A stretch of 64,000 nt of DNA, taken from the NCBI GenBank assembly GCA_049523215.1, contig JBEKNC010000003.1, positions 263,394-327,393 of the forward strand. Reading direction: 5' to 3'. The notes under the pieces are model-generated. The model was not told the DNA's origin, searched no databases, and was given only the letters and a program-made list of their open reading frames with translations. Both the position numbers and the translations under genes were made by a program. Within the stretch, counting starts at the first letter, position 1. Each line of letters starts with the position of its first letter. Shown one piece after another: positions 13,902-54,216 of this stretch. This DNA comes from Bacteroidota bacterium. GTDB lineage: Bacteria; Bacteroidota; Ignavibacteria; UBA10030.

Positions 13902-14495
13902 CTAGCGCCGAATTTTTAATCCAAGTGAGATACCGTATTCCGGAATTGCATTATGTTCACCGTAGCGACCGGTGAGAGACAGAGAATAGTTTGCTTCCAA
14001 GGGGAATTCCAGGCTGGTTCCAAATCCCCAGTTTTGGTAAATTCCTGTGTTGGCTCCCATCCAAATGCGCGTGCCATTCTGTGCTATCGGCGTCCCCATC
14101 CCTATCCGTAAAAGTCCTTTGCCCGTTGTGTAAGGAATTTCGTCCAGACATTTGATTTCAAAAAAGGTTTTTTCCAAATATCCTACTCGTAAACCTGTTG
14201 TGCCAAATGAAAAGATTCCATTGTCATAAGCAAAGTCCGGATAGCCGAAAACCGCTAAGCTCCCGTTAGAAGGTATCGCACTTATACTCGCTCCTAATCT
14301 CCAGGGAGATTTGAATTTCTGAGTTACACGAAAGCCGGCGTCATAAAAATGTGATGTATGCTCACCGCTGCAATCTTCATATGTATATTGTCCGGTTCCT
14401 GCACCGACGTGCCATTCAGTATAGGAAGAATCCTGCGGAGCAAAACCAACAATGTAAGGCGCTAAAAAGAGTATGATGAAAAAACATTTCGACAT
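13902..14495 (-). CDS. Putative outer-membrane beta-barrel protein (hypothetical)
   Basis: Signal peptide MSKCFFIILFLAPYIVGFA, alternating amphipathic beta-strand pattern rich in G/Y/T, aromatic residue at the C-terminus region. Confidence 0.4.
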   Translation of the reverse strand: MSKCFFIILFLAPYIVGFAPQDSSYTEWHVGAGTGQYTYEDCSGEHTSHFYDAGFRVTQKFKSPWRLGASISAIPSNGSLAVFGYPDFAYDNGIFSFGTTGLRVGYLEKTFFEIKCLDEIPYTTGKGLLRIGMGTPIAQNGTRIWMGANTGIYQNWGFGTSLEFPLEANYSLSLTGRYGEHNAIPEYGISLGLKIRR

Positions 14496-14519: not shown

Positions 14520-15624
14520 TCACGCTGCAGCGGATTTCTCTTCCACTTTGAGAATTTCGTACAGCGTTGTACGTTGCGCCGGAATAAATCCTGATTCCCG
14601 AATCATATTCCTGCACTCTTCAGCATCGGTTGTATTGATGAAATTAGCAGCCGCATGCACATTCTCTTCAAGCAACGTGCCGCCAAAATCATCGGCGCCA
14701 AAGTGCAAAGCAATCTGGCCGATCTTCTTCCCTTCTGAGAACCACGACGCCTGGATATGTTCAAAATTGTCCAAATAAACGCGTGAGAAGGCGATCATTT
14801 GCAGATACCGTGTAAGATGTAGCATAATGCGGAATAATCTTCTCTAAAGGCGTGTTACCGGGCTTAAATGACCACGGAATGAAGGCAGTGAACCCGCCGG
14901 TCTCATCCTGCAGCTGGCGGATGGCCTCGAGATGCTCAACAATATCCTCATCTGTTTCGAGGTGCCCGTACATCATAGTTGCCGTTGTTTTGTAGCCAAT
15001 CTGCTGGGCAATGCGCATGACATTCAGCCAATCGGCAAAAGTGCCTTTTTTACTGCTGATCTTCCTCCTCACACGGTCAGAGAGAATTTCGGCGCCTCCG
15101 CCGGGAATAGACCGCAATCCTTTTTCCCACAATTTCTCCAGCACCCCCCGAATCGATAAACCGGAGATTTGCGACATCCCAATAATTTCCGATGTGGAAA
15201 AGAAATGCGGATAGATCTCCGGGACTTCCTTCACGGTACGTTCGACAAGTTCGAGATAATATTCAAATGGAATCGTCGGGTCAACTCCGCCCTGGAGAAG
15301 CACTGTCGTGATACCTTTCGACGCCGCTTCCTTAAATTTCTGAATCAGTTGGTCGCTCGACAGCCGGTACGCGCCTTCTTCGCCCGGATGCCGGTAGAAT
15401 GCGCAGAAGATACAATCGATGTTGCAGACATTTGAATAATTCGGATTGGTATCGAGCAAATAAGTTACCCATTGTTTCGGATTTTTTTGGAATCGGATTT
15501 CATTTGCCATGTCGCCGAGATCCAATAACTCCGCATTCCTCAACAGAAAGAATCCTTCTTCCCGCGAGATACGAACACCTTCCCGAACCTTCTGATAAAT
15601 TTCTTCCAATGTCATACCATACAT
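14520..15624 (-). pseudogene. Radical SAM menaquinone-biosynthesis enzyme (futalosine pathway, MqnC/MqnE-like) interrupted by a frameshift near 14805-14845
   Basis: The CNIDCIFCAF CxxxCxxC cluster lies in the 287-aa ORF (14761-15624). The C-terminal part (AFSRVYLDNFEHIQASWF...GADDFGGT, typical MqnC/E C-terminus) lies in a different frame (14520-14843). The two frames overlap, consistent with a single-base indel. Confidence 0.6.
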
Positions 15625-15773
15625 CCTACAAATTTATTTGATAACCCGATTGGTGTCAGGAATTTCTTCCTGACACTTTTCTATGTCATCCTCGTTCGCT
15701 TTTTCTGTCAGGATGTAAATCCTGACAGCACATCTAATGAAACGCATCCTACAAATTTATTTGATAACCCGAT
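15622..15773. mobile_element. MITE-like insertion (about 94 bp, two hairpins, ends tgtcagga/tcctgaca) flanked by a perfect 29-bp direct duplication (15622-15650 and 15745-15773)
   Basis: DR catcctacaaatttatttgataacccgat appears twice. The internal sequence is tggtgtcaggaatttcttcctgacac...ctgtcaggatgtaaatcctgacag. One DR copy carries the stop codon of gene 15749-16579, the other carries the start codon of gene 14761-15624. Confidence 0.6.
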
Positions 15774-16579
15774 GCTTTAAGATCTTTCAATAATCCGAAG
15801 CTCGCTTCTTCCAACTTGATCACGATCGATTTCGTCAACACGCCCGGCACGTTTTTTGGAAAGTCAACATCTGACATATGAAGAACACAAACACGATTTT
15901 TGCCAAGCTTTCCGACGAAATGCCCAAGCTCGAACATTGCATACGCAAGATCGTTCGGGTTGATGATAAAGAAGGCAAACCTTACGCCCGCATCAACCTG
16001 AAGCGTCTCAAGCGGAAGCATCTGTCCGTGTTGACGTTCGATATCAATTTCCTCTATTCCAATTTCTCCGAGAAATTGCAGCAACTGCACACGGAGCGGA
16101 TCATCTGCTTCCCCGACAACATACACTTTACTGGCATGCGCAGCAGCCTGCGGATGTGCAGAAGGTTGAGCGGGTGCCGTCGCTGCAGGTTTCGGAGGCG
16201 GTTTCAATATTCGGACTCCTCCGGTGTCTGTTGCAGTCTGAACTGTCGGCGTCTGAAGATCCATTGCCGGAGCAGCCGGAGCCGATGCGAGTTCTGGAGA
16301 AGCCTTCACTTTTTCGTACAGTTCACGCAAACAGTTGAGAATCAACTGGGCGGATGGCTGAAAAAAGAATCCGCCTTTTTTATCCCCAAGAATTTTTTGT
16401 TTGTACGGAAATCCAATTGGTCCGGATGATTCGAGCGTTTCCAAACATGCTTTGCGCCAATCCAGATATTTATTTTGTAATCGTGCATTATACCCGGAGG
16501 CCTCGAATCCTCCTTGCGGCGCTAATTGAGTTCCGCTGGCTATTAACTCTTCATATTTTTTTAGTAATTGTTCTGGCAT
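15749..16579 (-). CDS. Hypothetical protein with a C-terminal TIR-like nucleotide-binding domain (COG4271/SLOG-type), a Pro/Ala-rich linker and an N-terminal helical domain
   Basis: The C-terminal region KVYVVGEADDP...FAFFIINPNDLAYAMFELGHFVGKLGKNRVCVL matches the conserved strand-turn pattern of predicted TIR-like nucleotide-binding proteins (fElGyFiGklG..rv). The assignment is from recalled family consensus and not verified by search. Confidence 0.45.
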   Translation of the reverse strand: MPEQLLKKYEELIASGTQLAPQGGFEASGYNARLQNKYLDWRKACLETLESSGPIGFPYKQKILGDKKGGFFFQPSAQLILNCLRELYEKVKASPELASAPAAPAMDLQTPTVQTATDTGGVRILKPPPKPAATAPAQPSAHPQAAAHASKVYVVGEADDPLRVQLLQFLGEIGIEEIDIERQHGQMLPLETLQVDAGVRFAFFIINPNDLAYAMFELGHFVGKLGKNRVCVLHMSDVDFPKNVPGVLTKSIVIKLEEASFGLLKDLKASGYQINL

Positions 16580-16816: not shown

Positions 16817-17710
16817 TTATCCGATAAAAAGTCCCACAGCGAGTAAAATCGGTGTTGTCAAATTGATAACTACGTTTAGGCCCATCGAGGGAATCAGGGA
16901 AGGGATATTTTCAGCGTTTTGGTATGCACCCCTATAGGCTTTCCAAGCAGGGATAACTGTCAAGAGAGCAAGCAGACTATAACGAGGCAGTAAAACAAAA
17001 AACACACCGATCACTACCGAAACATACGCAAGCAGCAAGAAGACGCCATATAGTACGGCACTGGCTTGCCGCCCCATGGTAATCGGGAAATGTTTTCGTC
17101 CGATGCTTTTATCGGCATCCACATCAGGAAATTGATTGAGCAGCAGCAAGTCGCTCACAAGAAATGTAGGAGCAAGAGATGCAACAAAAGATGTCCAAGT
17201 GTATGAACCTGTCAAACAGAAGTGCGTCCCCATAACCATGAGAATGCCGAAACCCAATCCCGGCGCTATCAAACAGAGGATCGGATTATACGCCCACCAA
17301 ATAGTATAGGTCACTAATAAGATCAATCCGATGGTGCCAAGCGGCAATAAGAGGAAACCTCGCAGCCATATGAAATAGAACCCCACTACCGCAGTAATAA
17401 CAAAAGTGATTATGGCAAGATAAAGAGTGCTTTTGTTCATCTCCGGATGTGCCTGAAGTGTGCCGCTGCCGCCGCTGAAGGGTGTGCGTTGAGTTTTAGC
17501 GTCAAGTCCGCTTTTAAAATCAAAATATTCGTTAAATGCGTTAGCGCTGATATGACTTGCGAGTCCACCAATAAGAATTATAAGAATCTGGATCCAGCTT
17601 ATTTCATGGGTTTGCCAGAAGGCCGTTCCCGCGCCTACAGCAACACACGCAGGTGGCAGGATTAAAAACGGTACACGCATAGGGCCAAGCAGTGATTTCA
17701 TTTTGTTCAT
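16817..17710 (-). CDS. menA: 1,4-dihydroxy-2-naphthoate (or futalosine-pathway equivalent) polyprenyltransferase, UbiA superfamily
   Basis: Multi-TM UbiA-type protein with NEYFDFKSGLD (N/DxxxD motif) and a second Asp-rich motif DVDADK. Confidence 0.75.
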   Translation of the reverse strand: MNKMKSLLGPMRVPFLILPPACVAVGAGTAFWQTHEISWIQILIILIGGLASHISANAFNEYFDFKSGLDAKTQRTPFSGGSGTLQAHPEMNKSTLYLAIITFVITAVVGFYFIWLRGFLLLPLGTIGLILLVTYTIWWAYNPILCLIAPGLGFGILMVMGTHFCLTGSYTWTSFVASLAPTFLVSDLLLLNQFPDVDADKSIGRKHFPITMGRQASAVLYGVFLLLAYVSVVIGVFFVLLPRYSLLALLTVIPAWKAYRGAYQNAENIPSLIPSMGLNVVINLTTPILLAVGLFIG

Positions 17711-17788: not shown

Positions 17789-19858
17789 TTACTTCACAGT
17801 CGCTCCTGTGGATATTTCCGATTGGACACCAACGAGTGTTAATGTGCCGGATTCGTCGCTAGCGGCAAGAATCATGCCTTGCGACTCCTGCCCCATGAGC
17901 TTCGCAGGTTGGAGGTTCGCGACAACTACGATCAACTTTCCGATTAAATCCTCTGGTTTGTACTGCTGGGCGATGCCTGCAACCACCTGGCGCCTTTCGT
18001 TTCCAATTTCAACTTGCAGCTTTATAAGCTTTTCAGACTTGGGTACTTTTTCTGCTTCGATAATTCGTCCGACGCGAAGATCAACCTTTTTAAAATCATC
18101 CATCGTGATCGTAGGTTTCAGAGGAGAAATTGGAACGGCTTCAGGATTGTCTCCGCCTTCGAGGAATTTCACAATCTCGTCGATCTGCTTATCCTCAATT
18201 TTGGTTATGAGAATTTCCGGTTTGTTCAGCTGGTGTCCTTTTTTGATTCTGAATTCAGATGCAGAATCCCATCCATCTTCTCTCAATGGAATATCGAGAT
18301 TGAGGAGTTTCCATATTTTTTCGGAAGTGGCAGGTACAACAGGTTCCAACAAAATTGCAAGAGACCGCACTATTTGGATTGCAACATGAAGAGTCGTTGA
18401 GCAGCGTTCCGGACTCGATTTCAGTGTCTTCCACGGCTCGCTGTCATTAAAATACTTGTTCGCGGCGCGGGAGAGATTCATCACTTCCATCAATCCTTCG
18501 CGAAAGCTGTAATGTTCAAACAACTCACCAATTTTAGACGGTGCTTGTTTCACTGCTGCAATAACTTCTTCGTCAAGCTTATTGAGCGTGCCAAGCTTCG
18601 GTACAATGCCTCCGAAATTCTTATCTATGAACGCAATCGTGCGATTGACAAAGTTCCCGGTAATGTCTGCCAATTCATTATTGATGCGTGCCTGAAAATC
18701 TTTCAGATAAAAATCACTGTCGCGAGTTTCAGGCAGATTGACAGCGAGAGCGTACCGCAACATATCCGCCGGAAAGAATTTCAGAAATTCTTGAAGATTA
18801 ATTCCCCAGCCGCGGCTCTTTGAAAACTTCTGACCTTCAAAATTGAGAAATTCGTTTGCAGGCACATTTTCCGGCAGTACATAGTGATCGGTATTGCCGT
18901 CATTCCAGGCCATCAGCATCGCTGGAAAAACGATGCAATGAAACACCACATTGTCTTTGCCGATAAATGCAACATACTTTGTGTCTTCATTCTGCCAATA
19001 TTCCTTCCACGCTTCCGGTTTTCCGTGAACTGCCGCCCATTCTTTGCCGGATGAAATATACCCGAGCACTGCATCGAACCAGACGTAAATTACTTTATCT
19101 TCGTATCCTGCAACAGGCACGTGTACACCCCAGTTCAGATCGCGTGTCACCGCACGGTCTTTCAATCCATCTTTGAACCATCCTTCGCAATATCGAAGAA
19201 CATTGTCTTTCCAACCATCTCTTTTGTTCCGTTCGGCGATGTACGATTCCAATCGCGACTGATATTTCCCCAGCGGAAAGTACCAATGTGTTGTTTCCCT
19301 CACAACCGGTGTCGTTCCGCACAACTTGCACTTTGGATCAATGAGTTCAGCTTGATCCAGCCACGTACCGCAATTCTCACATTGATCACCGCGCGCCTGT
19401 GTCGATTTACATTTGGGGCAAGTGCCTTCAACATAACGGTCGGCAAGAAACATGGAATCTTGTAAGCAATACAACTGCAGCTCCTTCTTCTCGACCACAA
19501 TATTGCGTTTGTGGAATTCCCCAAAAAATTCTTTCGCTGTTTCGTGATGCAAAGGAAGCGAAGTACGCGAGTAATTATCAAAACTCATTTCGAATGCTTC
19601 GAATGCCGCTTTATTTGCTGGATGGTAGCGGTCGATGATGTTCTTTGGCGTCGTCTTTTCTTTTTCCGCTGAAACAGTAATGGCAACACCGTGCTCATCG
19701 GAGCCGCAGAGGAAGAGAACATCACGTTTCTTCATGCGTTGATAACGGGCATAGATATCTGCCGGCAAATAAGCGCCTGCAAGATGTCCAAGGTGCAGAT
19801 ATCCGTTTGCATACGGCAATGCTGCTGTAATAAGGATTCGTTTGAAAGGAGACTTCAT
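17789..19858 (-). CDS. metG: Methionine--tRNA ligase with C-terminal tRNA-binding domain
   Basis: HLGH (PYANGYLHLGHLAG) and KFSKS motifs, zinc knuckles CPKC/CENC, C-terminal EMAP/tRNA-binding domain. Confidence 0.9.
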   Translation of the reverse strand: MKSPFKRILITAALPYANGYLHLGHLAGAYLPADIYARYQRMKKRDVLFLCGSDEHGVAITVSAEKEKTTPKNIIDRYHPANKAAFEAFEMSFDNYSRTSLPLHHETAKEFFGEFHKRNIVVEKKELQLYCLQDSMFLADRYVEGTCPKCKSTQARGDQCENCGTWLDQAELIDPKCKLCGTTPVVRETTHWYFPLGKYQSRLESYIAERNKRDGWKDNVLRYCEGWFKDGLKDRAVTRDLNWGVHVPVAGYEDKVIYVWFDAVLGYISSGKEWAAVHGKPEAWKEYWQNEDTKYVAFIGKDNVVFHCIVFPAMLMAWNDGNTDHYVLPENVPANEFLNFEGQKFSKSRGWGINLQEFLKFFPADMLRYALAVNLPETRDSDFYLKDFQARINNELADITGNFVNRTIAFIDKNFGGIVPKLGTLNKLDEEVIAAVKQAPSKIGELFEHYSFREGLMEVMNLSRAANKYFNDSEPWKTLKSSPERCSTTLHVAIQIVRSLAILLEPVVPATSEKIWKLLNLDIPLREDGWDSASEFRIKKGHQLNKPEILITKIEDKQIDEIVKFLEGGDNPEAVPISPLKPTITMDDFKKVDLRVGRIIEAEKVPKSEKLIKLQVEIGNERRQVVAGIAQQYKPEDLIGKLIVVVANLQPAKLMGQESQGMILAASDESGTLTLVGVQSEISTGATVK

Positions 19859-41556: not shown

Positions 41557-42045
41557 CTAATTCATAAACAAATACGGCTTCCAATGGTCATCCACAGTGC
41601 CGACGAAATGGCGGATAAACATCACGTGGTTGGGACGAATCGGTCTGCGGAGGAGAGTCATCTGTGATTCATGCAAAGTTCTGTCTCCTTTTTTGTTGTT
41701 ACAAGAGACACACGCTGCCACCAGATTTTCCCACGAATCTGGGCCGCCCTTCGCTCTTGGGATAATATGATCCACGGTGAGCATGGTGTCAGTTCTCCCG
41801 CAATATTGACAACTATGTCCATCGCGGCGCAAAATATTCTTGCGTGAGAGGACAATCTTTTTATAAGGGACGCGAACGAAAACACAGAGGCGAACTATGC
41901 TTGGATAGGGCATCGTCAAATAGACAGAATGCAATTTTTTTCCATCGCACGCCGCAATCAACTCAGCTTTGCCTAAATACAAGAGGATGACAGCTTTCTT
42001 GACATTACAGATGCTTAATGGCTCATAATTATGATTGAGCACCAA
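41557..42045 (-). CDS. HNH endonuclease family protein
   Basis: CxxC...H...N...CxxC pattern: CQYCGRTDTMLTVDHIIPRAKGG...WENLVAACVSCNNKK. Confidence 0.8.
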   Translation of the reverse strand: MVLNHNYEPLSICNVKKAVILLYLGKAELIAACDGKKLHSVYLTMPYPSIVRLCVFVRVPYKKIVLSRKNILRRDGHSCQYCGRTDTMLTVDHIIPRAKGGPDSWENLVAACVSCNNKKGDRTLHESQMTLLRRPIRPNHVMFIRHFVGTVDDHWKPYLFMN

Positions 42046-49803: not shown

Positions 49804-49904
49804 CCTTTCTTAACATATAGAGATAAATGCTTTTAAATGGTAATCAATTTAATAATCCTTTTCCACTCTTAAGTTTGATGAGTTTACGCATTGTAATAGC
49901 TCAT

Positions 49905-51011
49905 TAAGAATGTCAGGTTTGCGTATGTTAGAAGTCCTCAAAAGAGAAATGACTTCTGGAATGGGACAAACCATAACAATGAGCATATAAGAGAAATGGA
50001 AACCCGATTGAAAATGATAGTACGGAACAAAGAAGGCAAAATCATCGTGTTAGAAGCAGCCGAGAGCATACATCTCAGCGAGCGGCAGATGTATCGTGTG
50101 TTAGCCCGCTATCGGACACAGGCAGAAGCAGGACTGGTGCATCGACTCCGCGGGGCACGAGTTCTCATCGAGGATATTCGGAAGAGAACGCGGAAGAAAG
50201 TATTTCGATTGTTCCGAGAGCAGTATTCAGATTATGATCCAACGCTGTTTTCCGAGAAGTGAGAGGAATATCACGCTTTGCGCATTTCACGGCAAACGCT
50301 CACTCGGTGGTTGGTCAAGGAAAGTCTCTGGGCGCCCAGACGCAAGAAGCGAACGGTGTCAGACAATGGGCTCACTCATTCAATTCGACGGTAGTGATCA
50401 CGATTGGTTTGAGGGACGTGGTCCGGCGCGGTGTTGTTTGTTGGTTGCCATTGACGATGCCTCGGGAAGTGTGATGCTGCGTTTTACCAAGGAAGAAGAT
50501 ACGGCAAGCGTCCCCTTTTGAGTTCTGACATAGATACATTCAACACAGAGGCATTCCTGCAGAAATCTACACAGATGGCGGTACGATCTATTTTGACACC
50601 AAAAATCCTAAACGTTTGACGCAGTTTGGCTGTGTTCTTAAAGCACTGGGCATTCATCATATCCATGCCTATTCTCCTCAGGCAAAGGAGCGGGTGAAAC
50701 GATCCAATCGAACGTATCAAGATCACCTGTTGAAGGCGTTACGCGAACAGGGCATTTCCAGCATCAAAGATGCAAATCGGTTTTTAGAGGAACTCTACTG
50801 TACTCAACACAATATGCGTTTTGCACAGTGCGAAGGACTTTCAGACATTCACCGCCCTGCTAATGGGATTGATCTCGACAACATCTTTTGCTTCGAAGAT
50901 ACTCGGAAGGTGTATAACAACTATACCATTACTCTGCACAGTCAGTTTATTCAGTTACTTCGCTCAGAAGCACCTCTGCCGCCTCCGCGCTCTACGCTGC
51001 TCCTGCGGCAA
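49905..51011 (+). mobile_element. Degraded IS, IS1202 (ISNCY)-like; DDE transposase split over three frames and truncated at the 3' end
   Basis: The ORFs 49996-50262, 50234-50521 and 50616-51014 together resemble one rve-type transposase: HTH ...LSERQMYRVLARYRTQAEAGLVHRLRGAR, then ...QFDGSDHDWFEGRGP..LLVAIDDASG, then ...HAYSPQAKERVKRSNRTYQDHL. The family call is from memory of ISNCY/IS1202 transposases. Confidence 0.65.
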
Positions 51012-51290
51012 TAGCTCGATAGTCGCATCATACGCCGGCCTGCCGTAGAACGATTGAAAACTGACCCAACCGATGATTTCACTATTTTTGTTTTCGACAA
51101 CTTATAAAGGACGTTTGTTGGGAGTGTGTTCATGAAACCATCGTATTCTGCTTTCTACTGAGATAGGTTCTGTGTCGGCAGTGACCATCCTTGAAGAGAT
51201 TGTCGAATTATATATCTCGACAATCCTTTCCAGGTCTTGAAGATTTGCGTCTCTATATATAAGTTCATCTATAGCTGTAATTGTCTTCAC
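51012..51290 (-). pseudogene. GNAT (PAT-like) gene fragment: canonical N-terminus plus the 172-bp repeat, with a premature stop
   Basis: [62 protein letters not shown]. It is identical to gene 42456-42932 over the repeat except for a ccc to ctt change that creates the stop. It ends at the IS junction. Confidence 0.8.
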
Positions 51291-53971: not shown

Positions 53972-54009
53972 GCCACCACCCCACACCCCTCCTCATATGA
54001 GGAGGGGAC
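53972..54009. repeat. GC-rich hairpin ccaccacccc..cccctcctcatatgaggagggg; related to 10929-11039 and to cccctctcaagagggg at 53236-53256
   Basis: 22-nt perfect palindrome preceded by a ccaccacccc box, the same pair of motifs as at 10929-11039. Confidence 0.6.
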
Positions 54010-54216
54010 GTTCCGATGTATTTCAATCGGAACAGGGGTGGTCGATAAACGCCAGAGAGTAATCAAAGGCAAGCATATCACTTCAAGAGAGTGTCGGGAG
54101 GAAACTCCCGCCATCACATTTACACGTGAAATCATTAAAAAATCAAGATTTGCTTGTTTCTTCGGAAATTTATTTGAATATAGATTAAAACAGAATAACA
54201 TAATTATCAAAAGGGA

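Follow-up and report, generated by a model that had tools for sequence, protein, structure and literature searches.

A hairpin-doublet element between two copies of a 29-bp repeat at the junction of a TIR-like gene and mqnC in an uncultured Bacteroidota bacterium: a probable MITE- or REP-like insertion

How did 94 bp of structured DNA come to lie in what had been a one-base gap between two genes of a menaquinone operon, with the same 29-bp sequence standing on either side of it? The question is raised by a 64-kb stretch (the window; contig JBEKNC010000003.1, positions 263,394 to 327,393) from an uncultured Bacteroidota/Ignavibacteria-like bacterium, in which the insert separates a TIR-like gene from mqnC. 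The answer that we favor, and consider fairly probable, is that the 94 bp are a non-autonomous "hairpin doublet", resembling miniature inverted-repeat transposable elements (MITEs) and repetitive extragenic palindromes (REPs), that recently entered the final 25 nt of the TIR-like gene and the G-ATG junction following them. The data cover 64 kb of the host genome and short flanks for the other loci discussed here.

The direct repeat and the junction in relatives

The window has exactly two occurrences of the 29-mer CATCCTACAAATTTATTTGATAACCCGAT, at 15622-15650 and 15745-15773, both perfect; allowing up to 3 mismatches brings in no further site in the window, and 100 shuffles gave 0 matches. Since the nucleotides adjoining the two copies differ on either side, the repeat is exactly 29 bp long, and the insert between them is 94 bp (15651-15744), in agreement with the repeat and the insert of roughly 94 bp described in the first-pass annotation of this DNA. 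That annotation had also taken the stop codon of the TIR-like gene and the ATG of the radical-SAM gene (mqnC) to come from separate copies, and the minus strand reads accordingly. Copy 2 (15745-15773) supplies the functional end of the TIR-like gene (its last 25 nt, or last 8 codons, with the TAG stop), followed by G-ATG; copy 1 (15622-15650) supplies the mqnC ATG (15624-15622), preceded by 25 nt that repeat the 3' end of the TIR-like gene as a relic. The source contig (L001) and a contig of an independent Logan assembly (SRR7028477, L002) are both identical to the window, so the structure is not an artefact of assembly.

The TIR-like protein has hundreds of orthologues in metagenome-assembled genomes (MAGs) of Bacteroidota/Ignavibacteriales, and the junction was read on contigs fetched for the six closest of them. 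Eight contigs (L003-L007 and L013-L015), with 93-95% nucleotide identity to the window in the TIR-like gene, have an empty site, ...ATCGGGTTATCAAATAAATTTGTAG-G-ATG-TATGG... (in shorter form ...AAATTTGTAG-G-ATG-TATGG..., with the core ...TTTGTAG-G-ATG...), where stop and start are one base apart. This is the uninterrupted TAGGATG junction that had been predicted for relatives, and its presence there shows an insertion with target duplication, neither an assembly artefact nor a local tandem duplication. As the duplication is still perfect, it is younger than the ~5% divergence from these relatives.

The state of mqnC bears on how the duplication arose. This gene (14520-15624, minus strand), for the radical-SAM cyclic dehypoxanthinyl futalosine synthase, is a pseudogene in the window, split into open reading frames (ORFs) at 14761-15624 and 14520-14825. 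Compared with the intact gene of L013 it has one extra T near 14815, in a CTCT run, giving a +1 frameshift. The same site is +1 in L009-L012, +4 in L003, and intact in L004, L008 and L013; in L009-L012 the first 569 nt of mqnC are also gone, starting directly after TAG. The three frameshifted lineages have a common MetRS/UbiA-TIR-mqnC context (the L003 contig begins within UbiA), so that the lesion is most simply ancestral to them, and because L003 is frameshifted and has an empty junction, the pseudogene would predate the insertion specific to the window. Judging from these alignments, mqnC was probably already a pseudogene when the element arrived. In that case the 29-bp duplication was not kept by selection for an mqnC start, which supports a mechanistic origin for it, and the insertion itself was probably neutral. 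The two genes had been proposed to form a translationally coupled operon with a 1-nt gap, split by the insertion; the empty TAG-G-ATG sites bear out the ancestral coupling, and a functioning operon at the time of insertion is improbable, mqnC having been frameshifted earlier.

The hairpin doublet and its family

In the orientation of its family (plus strand), the element consists of TG, a first hairpin, H1 (15653-15676), a 28-nt spacer, a second hairpin, H2 (15705-15728), and a 16-nt right-end segment, CACATCTAATGAAACG (15729-15744). H1, GTGTCAGGAA-TTTC-TTCCTGACAC, and H2, CTGTCAGGAT-GTAA-ATCCTGACAG, both have perfect 10-bp stems and 4-nt loops, T-rich with a G..C closing pair in H1 and A-rich with a C..G closing pair in H2. 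As DNA the insert folds at -20.5 kcal/mol, against -6.6 for shuffles (z = -7.0). The sequence TTTTCT directly after H1 on the plus strand is terminator-like in the antisense direction only; on the sense strand no U tract follows either hairpin. Both hairpins reported at first pass are real. The accompanying "inverted ends", tgtcagga...tcctgaca, are two copies of one palindrome and are not terminal, lying 3 nt from the left repeat copy and 17 nt from the right one; each hairpin being palindromic, any two copies are trivially inverted. As defined by the repeat, the ends of the element are 5'-TGG...ACG-3'. The sequence TG(G/C)TGTCAGGA is found at both sides of the insert with a 10/11 match, the right one 14 nt inside the repeat-defined end.

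A search for further copies had been suggested at first pass, and the element does have a family, dispersed and multi-copy, in other genomes. Scanning one genome per species with the pattern TGTCAGGA-loop-TCCTGACA-N15-45-TGTCAGGA gave 84 loci, against ~4 expected by chance, and a stricter pattern gave 16 loci in metagenomes. About half of the pattern matches form one coherent family in Ignavibacteriales/Bacteroidota-type MAGs, several copies to a genome (eight loci in JBGPAN01, seven in CAVUAC01 and five in JAPLFP01); the rest belong to other repeat families, in other phyla, that share the octamer by chance. The family formula is (G)GTGTCAGGA-loop-TCCTGACAC, spacer, CTGTCAGGA-loop-TCCTGACAG. 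The architecture is constant and always in the same orientation: (T/C)G, then H1 as GTGTCAGGA-N-loop-N-TCCTGACAC with a T-rich loop, a spacer of 13-42 nt that often ends in TTTTTG, H2 as CTGTCAGGA-N-loop-N-TCCTGACAG with an A-rich loop, and finally CA or CG. Eight or nine pairs of the stems are invariant, and the loop-proximal pair varies with compensatory changes (CG, GC, AU, UA); 99% of cells pair, a covariation value that 0 of 500 shuffles reach.

Searched with a covariance model of 17 copies, the window contains one intact copy (match 15649-15732, 79.8 bits, E = 3.6e-17) and a degenerate single-hairpin relic, TGTCGGGAG-GAAA-CTCCCGCCA, in an intergenic position at 54090-54115 on the plus strand (20 bits, E = 0.004). 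A metagenome scan for the subfamily specific to the window (both stems fixed, spacer 18-40) gave 0 matches and hence no sister copies, and a scan of viral contigs gave one match, which is unrelated. The family is uncatalogued, absent from Rfam and from the searchable literature: the window region and 8 family loci have only weak Rfam matches far below gathering scores (the best, E = 0.71, to a eukaryotic small nucleolar RNA), and a literature search turned up nothing relevant to the hairpin sequence or to IS1202 MITEs. In an all-against-all search for a protein recurring beside the doublets, only cargo proteins with type IX secretion system (T9SS) tails were found; with no flanking protein that recurs, the element appears to be non-autonomous.

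Both ends of the window element have counterparts elsewhere in the family. Its right-end motif, CAC..TC..ATGA..ACG, read directly from the sequences, recurs at the right ends of the L008 and L026 copies. Its left end, TG followed by GTGTCAGG, is set in the window by the repeat and coincides with a homology break among L053, L093 and L119, which are 98.6% and 77% identical to the right of the doublet and unrelated to the left of this edge (L053 1096, L093 217). A coincident left end and a common right-end motif together favor a unit with defined ends over random copying. The same three contigs, which diverge exactly at that edge, illustrate that doublets mark rearrangement or synteny breakpoints.

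Among the relatives' loci the covariance model matches in L008 only. This contig, 95.1% identical to the window in the TIR-like gene and 95.8% over the first 400 nt of mqnC, has a two-hairpin insert of its own, unlike that of the window and 156 nt long, at the same junction, in the same orientation and with the same right-end motif. It keeps only a degenerate duplicate of 8-14 nt (...ACATTTGTAGGATG); its spacer and that of the window are only ~45% alike, and the loops differ.

The 250-nt left and right flanks of 92 hairpin clusters were aligned in search of repeats. Most clusters show nothing above noise, and three stand out: the window, L026 and L086. In L026 a 28-bp duplication with 1 mismatch surrounds a 134-bp insert at the 5' end of a gene for an S-adenosylmethionine (SAM) methyltransferase; the repeat covers codons 4-13. 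Before the upstream copy comes TTG GAC AAC C, and the N-terminus encoded by either copy has the length known from orthologues, so that the upstream block looks like the original gene start; the functional methyltransferase copy now starts at an ATG from the right end of the element. L112, 96.7% identical to L026 over 1.8 kb, has the same element without the 39-nt relic block, which means that a repeat copy was lost, or was never made there, between close genomes. In L086 a perfect 35-bp duplication comprises the last 11.7 codons of a gene, and the insert of ~165 nt brings a new stop codon. No empty site was recovered for L026, whose methyltransferase orthologues are at most 76% identical, or for L086. 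As the sequences of these three loci show, long duplications recur in the family, always at a gene terminus and not at a constant length. The survey of other copies suggested at first pass accordingly yields recurrent long duplications and no fixed value of 29 bp.

Several variants of the doublet are also seen. Tandem arrays are present in L046, L055, L061 and L082. In some copies the loop of either H1 or H2 contains a nested mini-hairpin of 25 nt, (T)CCGCC-N9-GGCGGA-TAAA... (L026 at 1497-1518 versus L112 at 1889-1935; also L008, L018, L019, L053, L068, L074 and L077). Even genomes with 96.7% identity differ in whether they have it, and it is either a second, smaller mobile or convertible module or a sign of rapid gene conversion among copies. 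In L019, L044, L051, L056, L070, L108, L111 and L121 the doublet is central in an element of ~150-170 bp with CTAG at both ends and ~22-nt terminal inverted repeats, CTAGAGAC..GAAAACCCC, which resembles the CTAG target duplication of IS5-type elements.

Explanations for the insertion

If the doublet is a mobile element, the insertion machinery would have cut the target strands ~29 nt apart, and gap repair would have doubled the 29 bp; the TIR-like gene would thereby have kept an intact end to one side of the element, while a relic of that end, together with the mqnC start, came to lie to the other. The enzyme would act in trans and probably recognizes the invariant TGTCAGGA/TCCTGACA arms of the hairpins, as DNA hairpins or as duplex sites. 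A more tentative proposal, to which we give a rather low probability, is that the integration mechanism is an undescribed one that recognizes TGTCAGGA palindromes, transfers strands 28-35 bp apart and regenerates the ends of genes hit in their last or first ~30 bp. Such regeneration would explain why recent copies lie exactly at gene termini and why the TIR-mqnC junction has been hit twice.

Several observations weigh against a mobile element of this kind. The two ends are asymmetric and appear to lack canonical terminal inverted repeats, and no candidate transposase was seen in the window or adjoining any copy. About 55 of the 60 family clusters examined lack a detectable flanking repeat within 250 nt. 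Such repeats can be lost quickly, as in L112, so an old copy without one tells us little. Three duplications were measured, each of a different length (28, 29 and 35 bp), and in L086 the insert holds a diverged third copy of the repeat, which local amplification would also fit. The 64 kb contain a single intact copy and a single relic, and no near-identical sister was found, so that the case for recent activity in this genome is indirect. Finally, the CTAG-ended elements raise the possibility that the hairpin core may be carried by more than one kind of MITE, the doublet being a module of different vehicles.

The best of the competing explanations, which we nevertheless think unlikely, is that the element is a MITE derived from, and mobilized by, an IS1202-family (TnsB-like DDE) transposase of the long-duplication subgroup. 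The first-pass annotation had attributed the element to IS1202-group transposition and had noted a degraded insertion sequence (IS) of that type at 49.9-51.0 kb. Going by the length of the duplication, Siguier and colleagues recognize three subgroups of the family, ISAba32 (5-6 bp), ISTde1 (15-17 bp) and IS1202 (27-28 bp, one member 29 bp), and duplications of 27-29 bp are otherwise known only from the last of these (bioRxiv 10.1101/2022.12.17.520857); it is the only IS group named there or in PMC10132070 with duplications of 24-29 bp. The lineage does carry IS1202-family elements. The one in the window (49892-51020, plus strand, left end TGTAATAGCTCATTAAGAATGTCAGG) is degraded and 3'-truncated, with 25 bp deleted between the two left-end binding-site repeats, ~330 bp gone at the right end, and several frameshifts and stops; its transposase gene belongs to NCBIfam NF033594 (ISNCY family), intact homologues of which are 435-473 aa long. 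An intact relative from the same sample (L100, 2443-3935; 1493 bp, with a 462-aa transposase and the left end TGTAATAGCTCATTAAGAATGTCAGG) is flanked by a duplication of 16-17 bp, the single IS duplication length measured here. The IS in the window would therefore be ISTde1-like and would not make a 29-bp duplication: it is of the IS1202 family, as had been noted, and not of the long-duplication subgroup, and it is not linked to the element. More distant relatives (L124-L127) lie at contig ends or have no duplication, and L101, L102 and L106 also have none. The published long-duplication subgroup is reported from Firmicutes, Tenericutes and one spirochaete, not from the host phylum (bioRxiv 10.1101/2022.12.17.520857).

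The ends of the element speak against the same explanation. Hallmarks of the IS1202 family, which the IS of this lineage shows, are TGT... ends and two transposase-binding repeats per end (PMC10132070). In favor of a link, the hairpin arms begin with TGT and end with ACA, and their invariant heptamer TGTCAGG is also the core of the IS clade's binding block, AATGTCAGG, a likeness that is suggestive but short and was noticed after the fact. The termini TGG...ACG lie 3 and 17 nt outside the TGTCAGGA arms, in place of TGT...ACA termini flush with the duplication, and no parent-like terminal inverted repeats of ~24-26 bp are present. Five element ends (from the window, L008 and L026) were compared with 17 IS1202-family inverted repeats, taken from the lineage's own IS and from published subgroup members, including Supplementary Table 1 rows (bioRxiv 10.1101/2022.12.17.520857). 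The similarity is no better than shuffled (p = 0.03-0.8), so that comparison with intact IS1202-like copies, as proposed at first pass, reveals no resemblance beyond chance, no end giving an inverted-repeat match (p > 0.03). Nor does any IS copy lie near a doublet, the 64 kb hold no parent IS of equal duplication length, and the duplications of the family range from 28 to 35 bp. What connects the element with IS1202 is in the end the length of the duplication, and the proposed origin by IS1202-group transposition is not sustained.

Two further points on IS1202 ends may be recorded. A likeness of the right end, CGT-TTCATT-N8-TGTC, to the left inverted repeat (IRL) of the IS1202 subgroup, TATGA-TTCATT-N8-TGTC, and to TCATTA-N4-TGTCAGG of the window IS failed the shuffle test. 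Separately, in most of the IS1202-subgroup rows examined in Supplementary Table 1 (bioRxiv 10.1101/2022.12.17.520857) that list a duplication, the left flank ends in TGTCAA (or GCAA, TTCAA, GGTCAA) directly before the left 24-28-bp duplication; this mimics the IS's own right-end (IRR) terminus TGTCAA and looks like a "pseudo-end" in the target that sets the insertion distance.

Templated insertion through replication template switching (fork stalling and template switching or microhomology-mediated break-induced replication, FoSTeS/MMBIR-like) seems to us improbable. A stalled strand would have copied a doublet elsewhere and re-annealed 29 nt back, the hairpins promoting both stalling and switching. 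The variable duplication length, the variable sequence outside the hairpins (2 versus 12 nt on the left, 16 versus 45 nt on the right), the apparent lack of terminal inverted repeats and of an associated transposase, the array-like local amplification in L086 and the fast hairpin turnover, with the nested 25-nt loop insert polymorphic at 96.7% genome identity, would all be in keeping with it. The conserved right-end motif and the coincident left end argue instead for defined ends, the arrival of two different family members, those of the window and of L008, at one junction and in one orientation looks like targeting, and no donor locus or junction microhomology could be shown.

The correspondence between the window and L008 in junction, orientation and right-end motif could also reflect one old insertion common to both, its interior overwritten by gene conversion and the element lost from the other relatives by precise excision, which 29-bp direct repeats would allow. 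We regard this as very improbable: the spacers and loops are too different, empty sites are found across all other relatives, and the repeat, a degenerate 8-14 nt in L008, is perfect over 29 bp in the window; over that divergence ~2-5 differences would be expected in the unconstrained copy. We find it scarcely credible that the structure arose by tandem duplication at the site, by faulty assembly, or from an integrated element that left attachment-site (att) core repeats behind. In favor of such origins are the start-to-start spacing of 123 nt (a multiple of three) and the way integrases rebuild gene 3' ends. Against them, the 94 bp are not duplicated locally, are absent at the empty sites, are found in two assemblies and belong to a dispersed family, and the targets in the window, L026 and L086 are unrelated, so that the repeat cannot be an att core that travels with the element.

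Comparison with known repeats, and the surrounding genes

Taken as a non-autonomous mobile doublet, the element has much in common with MITEs such as Correia/NEMIS, RUP and ERIC: these too are ~100 bp, non-coding, structured, dispersed in many copies, located at gene boundaries, associated with target duplication, and polymorphic for filled and empty sites between close relatives. In MITEs the terminal inverted repeats normally match, a parent IS can be identified and the duplications are of 2-10 bp, whereas this element has asymmetric ends, conservation of two internal palindromes, no parent that we could find, and duplications of 28-35 bp. With REPs and the related bacterial interspersed mosaic elements (BIMEs) and REP doublets forming hairpins (REPINs), which are associated with REP-associated tyrosine transposases (RAYTs), the family shares short palindromes that are conserved and whose stems change in a compensatory way, two types of hairpin that form doublets and in some loci arrays, many copies per genome, an intergenic position between gene ends, and occurrence at synteny breakpoints. 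It differs from them in an apparently low copy number in the host genome (~1 per 64 kb) and in the target duplications at three recent-looking copies (29, 28 and 35 bp); to our knowledge no target duplication has been reported for REP/REPIN insertion. No Y1_Tnp (RAYT) domain was found among the scanned ORFs of the window, and no neighboring protein is recurrent. The palindrome-associated transposable elements (PATEs) of the IS200/IS605 type likewise have asymmetric ends with hairpins, but they use a specific 4-5-nt target on the left and make no duplication; the present family lacks a conserved tetranucleotide in the left flank and does show a duplication. Purely as an analogy, off-target ("neo-CRISPR") integration by Cas1-Cas2 duplicates ~28-36 bp of the target, by a repeat-length ruler, and inserts ~30-40 bp. 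The long target duplication around an inserted fragment is similar in the present case, but the inserts are of 94-165 bp and are members of a conserved family, and no cas genes were seen.

Overall we consider this a moderately interesting new MITE/REP-like family with unusually long target duplications. If duplications of 28-35 bp are indeed mechanistic, it would be the first such repeat known to us outside the IS1202 subgroup, and would point to an unrecognized transposase, or a TnsB-like enzyme put to a new use, in Ignavibacteriota/Bacteroidota. The case also illustrates that, given a long duplication, an element can insert where gene ends overlap and the upstream gene still survives. There is also a consequence for annotation, in that the insertion hides the former coupling of the TIR-like gene and mqnC, and the duplicated ATG and a stop create a spurious 37-codon ORF (15634-15747, minus strand). 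It runs from the duplicated ATG through the element to a TAA in repeat copy 1, 9 nt before the mqnC ATG, and is in frame because the 123-nt insertion amounts to 41 codons; we regard it as incidental.

The genes around the insertion are all on the minus strand: MetRS (17789-19858), a UbiA/MenA-type prenyltransferase (16817-17710), the TIR-like gene (15749-16579), mqnC, and a gene for a putative outer-membrane protein of 197 aa. The TIR-like gene (PF10137) is intact, encodes 276 aa, and lies between mqnE/D and mqnC in relatives. In L004, L008 and L013-L015 it is found (as PF10137 / PADLOC PDC-S35) downstream of UbiD, between mqnC and a fused MqnE-MqnD gene with the domains Radical_SAM, CofH_C and VitK2_biosynth, and its junction with mqnC is TAG-G-ATG. 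This placement among menaquinone genes suggests a metabolic role for the TIR-like protein, for example as a putative N-glycosidase replacing the futalosine hydrolase MqnB, rather than one in phage defense. Within the MetRS-UbiA-TIR lineage mqnC looks like a pseudogene in decay, and one may ask where in this organism the functional futalosine-pathway copy is located.

A third hairpin-like match in the window, at 14129-14150, lies inside the gene for a probable outer-membrane protein and is set aside as a chance partial match. The hairpin relic at 54090-54115 is upstream of a hemerythrin gene, with an unrelated perfect palindrome, CCCCTCCTCATATGAGGAGGGG, nearby at 53985-54010. Elsewhere in the window, amid housekeeping genes, is a stand-alone gene for a 162-aa HNH endonuclease (41557-42045).

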